Shown here in pieces: positions 36,938-56,892 of a DNA stretch of 64,000 nt. The stretch spans positions 64,001 to 128,000 of the forward strand of contig BTWA01000005.1 in the NCBI GenBank assembly GCA_045863295.1, given 5' to 3'. Below the pieces are notes generated by a model. The model searched no databases. It saw only the letters and a list, made by a program, of their open reading frames with translations, and was not told the DNA's origin. Positions within the stretch are counted from its first letter, which is position 1, and each line of letters opens with the position of its first letter. Both the position numbers and the translations under genes were made by a program. Source of the DNA: Candidatus Hydrogenedentota bacterium (GTDB taxonomy: Bacteria; Hydrogenedentota; Hydrogenedentia; Hydrogenedentales; SLHB01).

Positions 36938-37921
36938 CTATTCCACGATCTTGCCGGTGACGACCACGAACATGGCGTCCTCTCCGCCGGAGAGGTTGCT
37001 CTTGCCAACGACCACGCTTTGTCCGACCTTCAAGTCCACGTTGGCGCGAATGCCGGTTTCCGACATGGAACCCGCAGGGACCCGCATGGGCGGACGCGCG
37101 GGCGATCCTTCCGGTAGCGGAGTTGGGGGCGAGATGTATTCCGTGCCAAAGACAAAGTCGTCGAGTTGAATGCGACTGTTCTCGCCGGAGCCGGCGATGC
37201 GTAGCTGATTCACCATCAGGTTGTAGTTTCGCTTAGCGCCTTCGACGTCGACCGGCAAGACGCCTGAAGTCGAAGTTTCGGAATCTTCCCGCCCCCGAAT
37301 CCACAGCGTGTCGATCAATTTGTATGATTTGTAGGGGAAAGTTTCCGTCAATTGATAGACGACTTCACCCAGTGCGTCGGGCAATGTTTGCGGTTCGCCT
37401 TCCATAGTCCCTTGCAGTAAGTACATGGTCAGCTCGACATTTCGATCGGTATTCTCCGAATCGGGATCTTTTCTCACCACGTCGAGGCTGTCAATCATCG
37501 CCTCCACAGCCGGCATGAGACGGGCCGGCCCGATGACGACGATACTGTTGGAACTGGCGGCCTCGACGGCTCTTACGTTGAGTAGGCTGACCATCTGGGC
37601 GATTTCCTGCGCTTCCGCATGGGAGAGTTGAAAAACGCGCGTTTCAGCCGTCAAGGATTCAGCCGCCTTTTTTGCGAAATTGAGGACCTCGTACACTTCA
37701 TCCGTTTCGCGTTTTGCCTCGGCATCGGGAGTGTCTGCCGATTTTTGCGCAAAGGCGTTCATATGGGTTTGCGCCAATGTGGCCAAGTGGGCTAATTCTT
37801 CATCCGTGTAGTCCAAGGCGGCAGGCACAGGTTTTCTCTGTTCCTGGGCTTCCGCGTTCAGTGCTTCCGAACACACAAAGCTACAAGCCAGCATAAAAAC
37901 CAGCAGCGGATATTGTTTCAT
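36938..37921 (-). CDS. Small secretin-like exported protein (one N3/NolW-like domain plus reduced secretin-like core)
   Basis: Signal peptide; TRVFQLSHAEAQEI...SNSIVVIGP...MIDSLDV; NVELTMYLL; IRANVDLKVGQSVVVG...MFVVVTGKIVE. Confidence 0.65.
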   Translation of the reverse strand: MKQYPLLVFMLACSFVCSEALNAEAQEQRKPVPAALDYTDEELAHLATLAQTHMNAFAQKSADTPDAEAKRETDEVYEVLNFAKKAAESLTAETRVFQLSHAEAQEIAQMVSLLNVRAVEAASSNSIVVIGPARLMPAVEAMIDSLDVVRKDPDSENTDRNVELTMYLLQGTMEGEPQTLPDALGEVVYQLTETFPYKSYKLIDTLWIRGREDSETSTSGVLPVDVEGAKRNYNLMVNQLRIAGSGENSRIQLDDFVFGTEYISPPTPLPEGSPARPPMRVPAGSMSETGIRANVDLKVGQSVVVGKSNLSGGEDAMFVVVTGKIVE

Positions 37922-38475
37922 GACGAACCTCCTTCGTTGTCGGTCACCAGAATAATGACCACATTGGGATCATCTGTTGCCAGACGGATCTGTGAAAGTT
38001 TCAAGGGTGTACGCGGGGATTTGGGCGCATCGACGGGGGCCAGATCCGAGTCAGGGACAATTCTCTCCTGGGGTACCGGATCGTACTTTGCGATGGACCT
38101 TTGCGAGGTGGATTCAATTCCCGCGTCGTTGACGTTGCTCTCCTGGGTGATCCAATAGAGCGCGGCGCCGCATGCAATAAACGCTGTGACTGCAACCCAG
38201 CCAATTTGCGCCGCGGGAGACCAACGAAACGACTTCTGCGGCGTCTCCTTGAGGATTGCGGCACGCACCTGTTCCCGCAGTTCTTTGCAGTCCGCCTCGT
38301 CTATGCGCGAGGTGTGCATTGCCTTATACATTTCCTGACTTTGCCTCAACTCATTTGCGAATTGTTTGCAATGCCCGCATTGCGCGAGATGACTCCTGAT
38401 TGCCAGTGAAACGAGTTTACCCGTATCGCCCGCCACCCAGAGGGCGATCTGCTTTTCGCAGGTCTTACACGTCAT
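37918..38475 (-). CDS. Zinc-finger (ZAS) anti-sigma factor, single TM
   Basis: MTC...HLAQCGHC (HxxxCxxC); one TM helix; overlaps the sigma stop. Confidence 0.85.
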   Translation of the reverse strand: MTCKTCEKQIALWVAGDTGKLVSLAIRSHLAQCGHCKQFANELRQSQEMYKAMHTSRIDEADCKELREQVRAAILKETPQKSFRWSPAAQIGWVAVTAFIACGAALYWITQESNVNDAGIESTSQRSIAKYDPVPQERIVPDSDLAPVDAPKSPRTPLKLSQIRLATDDPNVVIILVTDNEGGSS

Positions 38476-39076
38476 GAGATCGTTCCTTTTCGGCTTCATA
38501 GAACCGTTTCATCTTCAGGCGCGCTCTGCGCAGGTACGTCCGCACCGTTACTTCGAAACAGTTCATGGCTTTCGCCACTTCGCGGGCAGGCAGTTCTTCC
38601 AAATCGCGAAGTACAACGGCCGTGCGCTCACGTTCAGTCAGTGTGTGAAGGGCGCGTTGCAGAAATGACTCGCGCTCTTCGCGCCGCAATCCGGCGTCGG
38701 CGGCGCCTGGTGTTCCCCGCGTGGCCGACGCTTCCACGCGGGACAGCGTAACCGCCGTTCGCATTCTCCTGCGGGCGGCGTCGCGACAGGCATTGACCGT
38801 CAACCGGTAGAGCCAGGGTTCCAGCGGGCGCGACCCGTCGAACCGGTCAAAGTGGCGAAAGAGCCGCAGGAACACCTCTTGCGCGGCATCCTGAGCGTCT
38901 TCGCGGTTTCCGAGCAGGCGTAGCGCCGTTCGCAAGACCAGCGCCTCGTGGCGGACCAGCAGGGCGTCGAAGGCGGACAAATCCCCCGTTTTGGCGGCGC
39001 TCACCCAGGCCGATTCTTCCGAATCGCCTGAAGGCGCTGTCATGAGCCACGCGAGTTGTCCGTTTTTCGCTTCCAC
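38465..39076 (-). CDS. ECF sigma factor
   Basis: GDLSAFDAL, DAQDAAQEVFLRL, WLYRLTVN, region-4 HTH TVRTYLRRAR. Confidence 0.93.
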   Translation of the reverse strand: MEAKNGQLAWLMTAPSGDSEESAWVSAAKTGDLSAFDALLVRHEALVLRTALRLLGNREDAQDAAQEVFLRLFRHFDRFDGSRPLEPWLYRLTVNACRDAARRRMRTAVTLSRVEASATRGTPGAADAGLRREERESFLQRALHTLTERERTAVVLRDLEELPAREVAKAMNCFEVTVRTYLRRARLKMKRFYEAEKERSHDV

Positions 39077-39281
39077 TTAGGGGTCCCCGGTTGCCTCTCA
39101 CTTATACATACTCTGCCACATGGGGAAATGATGACAAGGCTGTAGTGGAACGCGATCTCGCGGCGGCGGCGGCACGACCGGTTGATTGTCCACGCTGCAC
39201 GTCCGGCGGGTATATGATTCCCCTGAAAATGCTGGCGTGCTACACTCACGCGCGATTAACTTGAGGAGGGTTTTCGACTTC

Positions 39282-55334: not shown

Positions 55335-56033
55335 CTATTCCGCCTTGGAGTCCTGTGGTTTGTACTCGGTCACGCGGAAGTAGACTGCAATCTTTACCTG
55401 AGCCTCGGCCGGGGTGCTCGCCTCCGATTGTATTGCCTGATCGTCTTGCACCGTCAAAACCATCCACTTACCCAGTTCAATTGCTTCCGGCGTGTCCAGC
55501 GTACTCGCCAACGTGCGAATGTCGGGTTTACCCACTGGCAACTGTGTTCCTTCAACCGGCGCGCGTGCCGCGACGGCGGCAACGTTGCAGGTCATTCGCA
55601 ATGCGACCTTGGCTGGATTGTCCAGTGGAGTGAACGAGGCGGCCAATTCTATGCCGGGCGCCGTATCGGAGTTTTTCAATTCATAGCGGTTATCGCCGAC
55701 AAACTCGAAGTACTGCAAGGGTACGTCGCCGCCAATGCGGATGTTTGCTTCCGCCCCTTCGAGGGTCACGATTCTGGGCGCCGCAAGGACGGTGTAGGAC
55801 TGGTGTATCCAGGCGTGATCTATTTCGCCTCCGTTTACATCTACGGGCTCCAGAATTGATGGGTTCCGTTGTGAGTTTTCAGTTGCCTCATCCGAGACGT
55901 TTTTCTCACTGTGCTCGGGAATTTTCTGGGCTATCACAAATTCCGCTGAATATTGGATCTCCGCCGCGAGACAGAGGGTAGAAAACCCACTGAGTCCCAA
56001 CACGGCCAATTGTCTGTAAACAGTGCGTCTCAT
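55335..56033 (-). CDS. Stand-alone minimal secretin-core-like exported protein
   Basis: Signal peptide; VLAAPRIVTLEGAEANIRIGGDVP, GIEL, PDIRT, IAVYFRVT. Confidence 0.65.
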   Translation of the reverse strand: MRRTVYRQLAVLGLSGFSTLCLAAEIQYSAEFVIAQKIPEHSEKNVSDEATENSQRNPSILEPVDVNGGEIDHAWIHQSYTVLAAPRIVTLEGAEANIRIGGDVPLQYFEFVGDNRYELKNSDTAPGIELAASFTPLDNPAKVALRMTCNVAAVAARAPVEGTQLPVGKPDIRTLASTLDTPEAIELGKWMVLTVQDDQAIQSEASTPAEAQVKIAVYFRVTEYKPQDSKAE

Positions 56034-56416
56034 GTGGACGGACTCCTTTCTTGATTGGGCTGCTCTGGTTCTTCCAGTTCGATTACATAGGCGCGGTTAC
56101 GCCTGGGCTTGTCCGTGGATTGGAAACGTGCGGGCAGGTCAAATACGTTTGCGCTGCCCTGGGTTTCCTGGACGATATATATAATTTCACGACTGGGTGT
56201 AGCCTGCTGTCCGCGATAGAGCCAGGTTGCCGCTCCAAACCCGAGGGCAAGACATACGGCACATGCGCCCAGCATCGCGCGAAGTGTCACTCTCGATCCG
56301 TGCATTCTCTGCCGGCCGATGGCCGATTTCAGCAATAAGGCTTCCACGCGGCGATCGAGTTGATCGGAAGGGCTGCACAGTGCCCGTTGCCGCAACCGGT
56401 CTTCCATGTCGTTCAT
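56030..56416 (-). CDS. Putative single-TM anti-sigma factor
   Basis: ATGA overlap with the sigma gene; short helical N-terminus (MEDRLR...PSDQLDRRV), one TM. Confidence 0.7.
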   Translation of the reverse strand: MNDMEDRLRQRALCSPSDQLDRRVEALLLKSAIGRQRMHGSRVTLRAMLGACAVCLALGFGAATWLYRGQQATPSREIIYIVQETQGSANVFDLPARFQSTDKPRRNRAYVIELEEPEQPNQERSPST

Positions 56417-56892
56417 GCTTCATTCTCCCGGGTCATTGCCTGGAGTTTTTCAAGGCCGCGCCGGTACCACGATGCCGCTGTGCTCACCGGCACACCGCGC
56501 ACGTCGGCGATTTCCTGAAACGTGAGGCCGTTGTACAGTTTCATCACGATGCATTCGCGCTCGTCGTCGCCGAGATGAGTCAACATAAATTCAATGTCAT
56601 GTCCGGCACCGGCCGCAGGGGGTTCCGTGTGCCGGCCGTTGAATATGAACTGATCGCGGTTTCTGACCGTGTTGCGGCGTAGATCGTCCATTGCCGCATT
56701 ACGGACCATGCGAAACACATAGGGGCGGAGGTCTTCCGGCGGTTGTCTAAGCTCCAGCAACCGGGCAATCGCACCATGCACAATATCTTCCGCCACTTCC
56801 CGGTTTTTTGCCAGCGCGAGCGCGTAGGTGAACAGGGCGTCCCGATGGGATTCGTAGAATCGGCGCACGATATCGGTTAATTCCGCGTTCAG
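56413..56892 (-). CDS. ECF sigma factor (start CTG 56892 or GTG 56868)
   Basis: AEDIVH, YVFRMVRNAAMD, GLTFQEIA...STAASWYRRGL. Confidence 0.92.
   Translation of the reverse strand: MNAELTDIVRRFYESHRDALFTYALALAKNREVAEDIVHGAIARLLELRQPPEDLRPYVFRMVRNAAMDDLRRNTVRNRDQFIFNGRHTEPPAAGAGHDIEFMLTHLGDDERECIVMKLYNGLTFQEIADVRGVPVSTAASWYRRGLEKLQAMTRENEA

Follow-up and report, generated by a model that had tools for sequence, protein, structure and literature searches.

We examined a group of three genes in a 64,000-nucleotide stretch of a Candidatus Hydrogenedentota genome (GenBank assembly GCA_045863295.1, contig BTWA01000005.1, positions 64,001 to 128,000), hereafter the window, whose own numbering is used for all coordinates. 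The genes lie on the minus strand and their ends overlap. They encode an extracytoplasmic function (ECF) sigma factor of 203 residues (38465..39076), a single-pass anti-sigma factor of 193 residues (37918..38499) and a predicted exported protein of 327 residues (36938..37921), the last consisting of a signal peptide, a helical N-terminal extension, a Secretin_N domain and a trimmed secretin core. An earlier, sequence-only reading of the window had described three genes with overlapping stops and starts, encoding an ECF sigma factor, a ZAS anti-sigma factor and a minimal orphan secretin under ECF control. The open reading frames (ORFs) bear out this arrangement. The anti-sigma stop and the start of the 327-residue gene share an ATGA, with GAAGGAGG located 8 nucleotides 5' of the junction, and this apparent translational coupling suggests that the two proteins may be made in matched stoichiometry. 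The sigma factor stop codon TAA (38467-38465) falls inside the anti-sigma ORF as listed, giving an overlap of 35 nucleotides. The probable true start of the anti-sigma gene is the ATG at 38475, which shortens the protein to 185 residues beginning MTCKTCE (compare MTCQECE in homologues) and the overlap to 11 nucleotides. The sigma factor gene is listed with a GTG start, and a later start is possible.

The sigma factor contains the Pfam domains Sigma70_r2 (63.9 bits) and Sigma70_r4_2 (50.3 bits) and matches the NCBIfam model TIGR02937 (sigma70-ECF) at 103.6 bits, against a cut-off of 42.9. With sigma-2 and sigma-4 regions only, in about 200 residues, it belongs to the ECF (group 4) sigma factors. 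The anti-sigma factor carries an N-terminal HxxxCxxC motif at residues 37-44 (38368..38391), followed by one predicted transmembrane helix, in a gene that overlaps the sigma gene, which places it in ZAS class I. H37, C41 and C44 are invariant in all 36 aligned anti-sigma sequences, and the hydrophobic stretch, read from the translation, spans residues 96-117 or thereabouts. The protein scores 19.8 bits (E 8.8e-4) against zf-HC2 (PF13490), under the 22.2-bit cut-off; 13 of the 36 relatives match this domain at E <= 0.01, the best at 4.2e-9. Both regulator calls of the earlier reading hold, the ZAS call on the invariant motif and with a sub-threshold zf-HC2 score for the window protein.

Domains and fold of the 327-residue protein

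Read by eye, the protein starts with a signal peptide (MKQ, a hydrophobic stretch, then LNA followed by E). A lipoprotein reading of 'MLAC' within it was rejected, also by eye, the homologues having plain AxA/AFS-Q type signal peptides. Secretin_N (PF03958) matches residues 94-149 at 34.9 bits (cut-off 28.2), and this N3-type domain, at residues about 91-150 (37472..37651), stands directly ahead of a beta domain. No match to PF00263 was found in the protein at E <= 1. We built an AlphaFold2 model on a 121-sequence family alignment. It has a predicted local distance difference test score (pLDDT) of 84.2 overall, and most 10-residue blocks from about residue 90 to 327 score above 90, the lowest in this range being 70 (151-160) and 76 (271-280). 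The model begins with a helical N-terminal extension of low confidence, followed by an alpha/beta domain of N3 type (92-146) and by a C-domain, built from eight strands and a single helix, that forms the trimmed secretin core (residues 155-327, 36941..37459). Modelled alone, residues 155-327 gave a pLDDT of 91.8 and a predicted template modelling score of 0.85. A scan of this model, made without Foldseek, against 48,161 PDB representatives returned secretins as all of its best 12 chains, among them InvG, GspD, pIV, PilQ, ExeD, RcpA, XcpQ, PulD and BfpB. All 29 Foldseek matches of the C-domain at E <= 1e-3 were also secretins. The predicted core has an outer and an inner four-stranded sheet, and the secretin subunit core is described as four outer and four inner strands in the f1 pIV structure (PMC8563730). 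Because the C-domain model by itself matches secretins, the resemblance is not confined to the N3-like piece.

Sequence comparison points the same way with less force. When the family was aligned by hhalign to seven canonical secretins of the same genome, the end of N3 and the first strand paired rNVELTvYLL with rQVhIEAvIle (probability 53%, E 1.3e-4). Two further pairs, EGQkVVVGK with dGqtlviGGL and ALflVvtAkVve with L.ifitP.i.d, were weak (P 0.0059, probability 6%). This weak C-domain alignment is co-linear: as expected, the GQxVVxG strand comes after the helix and before the last strand. Searched against PDB sequences, the family profile found N domains only (GspD N domains at E 3.2e-17), and the GQ strand appeared in one insignificant 0.8-bit stretch. 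On these data, much of what the sequence-only reading had said of this protein survives: the signal peptide agrees with our by-eye reading, the N3/NolW-like segment is a Secretin_N domain above cut-off, the structure prediction that it proposed as a check gave a secretin fold for the monomer over N3 domain and core, also when the C-domain was modelled alone, and its three secretin-like strand pairs all reappear in hhalign, the first at 53% and the other two weakly.

What sets the protein apart from canonical secretins is the set of parts that it lacks. In the published description of secretins, the lip comprises 36 residues in phage, 51-60 in the type II secretion system and about 80 in cap-gate secretins, and the S-domain is optional (PMC8563730). 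In our model the beta-lip is absent: 9 residues separate the strand at 161-172 from the helix at 182-194, and at this position the secretin profile carries about 75 columns more than the family in hhalign. The gate loops are also absent. The hairpins 199-211/216-222 and 230-243/250-263, assigned to the gate positions by co-linearity, have turns of 4 and 6 residues, and hhalign opens a gap of 22 columns at a gate segment and a further gap at the VPxLGDIPxLG stretch. Neither a VPxLGDIPxLG motif nor an S-domain nor an N0 domain is present in the 327-residue protein. Its beta domain is roughly half the secretin size, with 122-132 residues aligning within chain stretches of about 220-270 residues. 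The outward-facing residues of the conserved strands, judged by eye from the alignment, include E, T, K and Q. The protein thus has a secretin fold but is not a canonical secretin or pore, and it is probably periplasmic rather than membrane-spanning. Elsewhere in the same genome there are at least seven canonical PF00263 secretin genes, none of them near the operon, and the 327-residue gene is not among the matches at E <= 1e-3. These genes lie on contigs C1, C2, C3, C28 and C31, all outside the window; two short PF00263 genes (411 and 385 residues as called), which gave no Secretin_N match, stand about 1 kb apart on contig C3.

The family to which the protein belongs is large: among 1.84 billion representatives, clustered at 50% identity, an exhaustive phmmer search found 917 clusters at E <= 1e-3 and 435 at E <= 1e-10. 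The best 150 of the 917 clusters have lengths of 168-391 residues, so none of these 150 is as long as a canonical secretin. A word-indexed search returned 9 proteins including the query, labelled 'hypothetical protein' or, once, GspD/PulD, and every one of the nearest Atlas clusters is annotated 'hypothetical protein', with most coming from Acidobacteriota. Conserved segments of the family are NVELT, FPYxxY, GQKVVVGK and the C-terminal VVTxKVV. Of 121 members, 115 contain Secretin_N and a single one matches PF00263, at E 0.0038. No fused form was seen among 8 proteins from the word-indexed profile search, and in the long members that were inspected the signal peptide is accompanied by helical or additional N-terminal parts and not by anti-sigma domains. 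Three of them (P0075, P0076 and P0142, 365-381 residues) carry heptad-like E/Q/R/L-rich extensions after the signal peptide, which, read by eye, suggest coiled coils and self-association of the long members.

Synteny, anti-sigma tail and promoter

A synteny search had also been proposed in the sequence-only reading. We scanned 185,579 species genomes with patterns from a 9-sequence alignment, mostly of acidobacterial type, and found 68 loci, nearly all in Acidobacteriota metagenome-assembled genomes (Bryobacterales, Terriglobia, Acidobacteriaceae), together with Paludibaculum fermentans (L037) and one Rhodospirillales metagenome-assembled genome. In 62 of these loci, a same-strand gene whose product matches the window's sigma factor (phmmer E <= 1e-3) ends no more than 1.6 kb upstream. 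Among the other six, L036, L059 and L068 have less than 800 nucleotides of upstream sequence, and L046, L063 and L067 have no such gene there. A middle ORF was picked by a crude rule in 51 loci, and 44 of these ORFs contain [HC]xxxCxxC. In the phylum of the window, full-length family matches occur in 19 of 135 species genomes including this one, the other matches being N domains of long secretins; 8 of the other 18 loci have an adjacent sigma and/or anti-sigma gene. The linkage of the family to the sigma/anti-sigma pair is strong, not universal, and weaker in the window's own phylum. As a separate observation, in four own-phylum loci of one genus (L079, L082, L083 and L084) the family gene follows an ORF of about 430-440 residues instead, and the first strand in this sub-branch reads ANVVFSVDILTNVKELG, nearer the canonical QVxIEAxIxEV...LG.

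The anti-sigma factor ends in a conserved C-terminal tail, LKLSQIRLATDDPNVVIILVTD (residues 166-187, 37939..38004), that is separated from the transmembrane stretch by a variable proline-rich linker in the 36-sequence alignment. T175 and P178 are invariant in this alignment, and D177, V180, V181 and position 184 are at least 90% conserved; position 184 is W in most relatives and L in the window protein. The consensus is LxVKMLTxDPDVVIYW, to which IRLATDDPNVVIIL corresponds in the window. In 49 of 56 candidate anti-sigma ORFs, a strict tail pattern lies no more than 25 residues from the C-terminus; of the remaining seven, two carry near-variants of the tail and the others are wrongly picked frames. 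The own-phylum loci L071-L074 and L077 have the tail as well, so that the tail and the 327-residue family co-occur in two phyla. No model in Pfam matches the tail. Since the anti-sigma factor has this tail only and no folded periplasmic sensor domain, a partner is called for. A short conserved sequence on a disordered linker resembles a tethered docking peptide, and we propose that the tail may form a docking hairpin.

The regions upstream of the sigma genes share a promoter-like motif. In an unbiased 6-mer count, TCAACG occurred in 50 of 63 upstream regions compared to 5 of 58 control regions, and GCGTAT in 36 of 63 compared to 3 of 58. In related loci the elements are ordered TCAAC-N17-(C/G)GTAT directly ahead of the sigma start codon, and of the 7 own-phylum loci whose sequence extends upstream of the sigma gene, 6 have the same arrangement. 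The window has a candidate ECF-type promoter on the minus strand at 39108..39134 (TCATC, N17, AGTAT), beginning 58 nucleotides before the sigma GTG at 39076. By our own rough estimate, the loose promoter pattern is expected by chance about 0.01 times per 260-nucleotide region. The recurrent motif supports a model in which the operon would be autoregulated by its own sigma factor from a promoter of TCAAC-N17-CGTAT type. The classical GGAAC...CGT ECF promoter was dropped as a candidate because it matched in only 7 of the 63 upstream regions. To scan the whole genome, we used a weight matrix derived from 50 promoter sites, most of them acidobacterial; the best score was 23.2, compared with a median of 30.4 (minimum 20.6) for the sites themselves, and no regulon could be called. 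In acidobacterial loci (among L001-L066), the -10-like CGTAT stands about 6-8 nucleotides ahead of the sigma GTG or ATG, and this short distance suggests that their transcripts may be leaderless.

A candidate envelope-signalling unit and its alternatives

Several ECF systems offer a frame for comparison. In cell-surface signalling (FecI-FecR-FecA) and in RpoE-RseA-RseB, the ECF sigma factor is under the control of a single-pass anti-sigma factor, which in turn touches a third protein of the envelope with its periplasmic part. In the first of these systems the third protein, FecA, is a TonB-dependent transporter that carries an STN signalling domain, and FecR and RseA have folded periplasmic domains. 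Unlike FecR and RseA, the anti-sigma factor described here consists, on its periplasmic side, of a linker and a short tail alone, and its putative partner is a secretin derivative. RseA/RseB are associated with ECF02 (PMC7826278). The CnrH-CnrY-CnrX system of Cupriavidus metallidurans is similar to the window trio in that one operon encodes, besides an ECF sigma factor, a single-pass anti-sigma factor of small size and a third protein that faces the periplasm. There, the C-terminal portion of CnrY, a class II anti-sigma factor, docks in the sensor CnrX, a membrane-anchored four-helix-bundle metal sensor (PMC6851896). In the window, the third protein has instead a secretin fold and a predicted cleavable signal peptide, and the anti-sigma factor is of ZAS type. 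We therefore use CnrX/CnrY as a working analogy only, with no homology implied, the two systems being set apart by their descriptions. With secretins (GspD/PulD, PilQ, InvG/SctC, RcpA and phage f1 pIV; PF03958 and PF00263), the 327-residue protein shares Secretin_N and the two-sheet core, but differs in its half-size beta domain and in having no PF00263 match, lip, gates, VPxLGDIPxLG, S-domain, N0 or secretion neighbours.

By analogy with CnrX and CnrY, the trio may be a three-component envelope-signalling unit in which the trimmed secretin serves as the periplasmic partner or sensor that docks the anti-sigma tail, a reading that we regard as an even call. The ECF sigma factor would be retained at the inner membrane through the ZAS-type single-pass anti-sigma factor. 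The periplasmic part of the latter would have no folded sensor and would consist of a flexible proline-rich linker ending in a strand-turn-strand tail of roughly 20 residues (LxVKMxTxDPxVVIYW). The third protein, with its N3-type domain and a core reduced to two four-stranded sheets, would be exported to the periplasm, where it would act as a sensor or co-regulator and dock the tail, probably by addition of the hairpin to an exposed sheet edge, in the way that neighbouring subunits contact each other in a secretin ring. A change of state in the third protein, with ligand binding, oligomerisation or envelope damage as conceivable signals, would then alter its contact with the tail and lead to release of the sigma factor, which we take as the direction of regulation. 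The released sigma factor would transcribe its own operon from the TCAAC-N17-CGTAT type promoter.

A number of points weigh against this proposal. In sequence, the C-domain shows weak homology to secretins (hhalign probability 6%, P 0.0059), and the fold evidence is built on predicted models. The 68-locus set is biased to the acidobacterial branch by the nine-sequence patterns. Of the other 18 own-phylum loci, 10 have no adjacent sigma or anti-sigma gene. Two of these (L076 and L086) are at contig ends and one (L087) is a partial match from which no family ORF was recovered, but L075, L079 and L082-L084 are clearly without the pair, and some family members therefore work without it. The window promoter has one mismatch in each element. 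The docking of the tail on the third protein is a prediction from sequence, not from direct binding. Complex predictions for residues 90-327 of the family protein with residues 120-193 of the anti-sigma factor scored 0.38, 0.29 and 0.20, with the median of 0.29 under the 0.32 mark and no controls folded, a result that counts neither for nor against the docking. Finally, the third gene, if co-transcribed, could be a mere output of the regulon.

The sequence-only reading had taken the protein as a minimal orphan secretin under ECF control. In this form it could assemble through N3 and core into a double-walled ring of 12-15 subunits and provide a conduit or scaffold, induced by stress, in either the periplasm or the outer membrane. 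The secretin fold does span both the N3 domain and the core, the most conserved segments (NVELT, GQKVVVGK and the last strand) correspond to subunit-contact strands in secretin barrels, the heptad-like extensions of several long members, by eye, hint at self-association, and the gene is presumably co-transcribed with its sigma factor. However, the membrane-facing lip and the gate loops, as described for secretins (PMC8563730), are absent, which would make such a ring a hole without gating and without an evident anchor in the membrane. In place of secretion, pilus or phage-assembly neighbours there are genes for a nucleoside transporter and for a TIM barrel resembling sugar-phosphate isomerases, the genome has its canonical secretin genes elsewhere, and the conserved anti-sigma tail would be left without explanation. 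We consider a ring of this kind unlikely. The secretin fold and the ECF control of the earlier reading stand, but the protein is neither a canonical pore nor an orphan.

The third protein might also have no signalling role and be in the operon only as the main target of the sigma factor, for example as a binding or chaperone-like protein of the periplasm that is induced by stress and acts on peptidoglycan, lipoproteins or misassembled secretins. ECF operons often include their targets, N3/KH-like and beta-sandwich domains are generic binding modules, and the own-phylum members without an adjacent pair fit a protein of this type. An output of the regulon does not supply the partner that an anti-sigma factor with a conserved tail and no folded sensor needs, and it sits poorly with the co-occurrence of tail and family in two phyla and with the matched stoichiometry hinted at by the coupled ATGA junction. 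Such a role appears improbable to us. As something of a long shot, the trimmed secretin could self-assemble edge to edge, with the tail as a two-strand insert that would compete with or complete the assembly, so that sigma release would report the assembly state of a gateless periplasmic ring. The secretin fold would then have been re-used as an envelope sensor independent of a secretion machine, possibly twice in this window. That the 327-residue gene is a decaying secretin remnant or a mis-called ORF, as a short protein without a PF00263 signature might suggest, is hardly credible given the 917 clusters at E <= 1e-3 (the best 150 all of 168-391 residues), the strongly conserved motifs, the high-confidence models and the conserved synteny.

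To our knowledge, every secretin known is a giant gated channel in the outer membrane and part of a secretion, pilus or phage-export machine. The large unnamed family described here keeps only the N3 domain and the two-sheet core, and most of its members are tied to a dedicated ECF sigma/anti-sigma pair with a conserved tail. The trio, which recurs in many soil bacteria, has the look of an envelope-signalling unit not described before rather than of a secretion channel. Full-text literature searches, whose reach ended at subscription journals, found no published description of it, and the main text and one supplementary file of the ECF re-classification paper, the parts covered, give no secretin context. 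If the tail does dock on the secretin core, the signalling unit would define a further, new class among three-component ECF systems, one that is common in Acidobacteriota of soil and extends to at least one more phylum, and would be a case of the secretin fold at work outside transport. The 327-residue protein, small and probably soluble, could serve as a model for sheet-edge contacts in secretins.

Neighbouring genes, transcript contigs and a second operon

The operon is flanked by genes for a nucleoside transporter, a TIM barrel protein of xylose-isomerase-like type, a GFO/IDH/MocA oxidoreductase and a phosphomethylpyrimidine kinase. None of the neighbours belongs to a secretion, pilus or phage-assembly cluster (type II or type III secretion systems, type IV pilus, Tad, filamentous phage). 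The interior of the sigma gene (38684-38998) is matched at 99% identity or more by single contigs of 213 and 260 nucleotides from two metatranscriptome runs of one study. Two 151-nucleotide contigs from a third run, probably one of DNA, lie inside the 327-residue gene. None of the matching contigs of the three runs bridges two operon genes. Because DNA carry-over is possible and no contig spans two genes, the contigs do not demonstrate transcription or operon structure.

A second operon on the minus strand of the window (55335-56868) has the same layout of sigma factor, single-pass protein and exported protein with overlapping stops and starts (ORF overlaps at 56413-56416 and 56030-56033). It differs in having no Secretin_N, no HxxxCxxC and no TxDP tail. 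The 232-residue exported protein was considered as a relative of the 327-residue family and rejected, the two showing no significant similarity (hhalign probability 0.2%). The other two products are a 151-residue sigma factor (Sigma70_r2 and Sigma70_r4_2) and a 128-residue single-pass protein that has no Pfam match. The 232-residue protein itself contains a weak PF00263 match at residues 79-160 (E 6.7e-5, 23.0 bits against a cut-off of 27.5).

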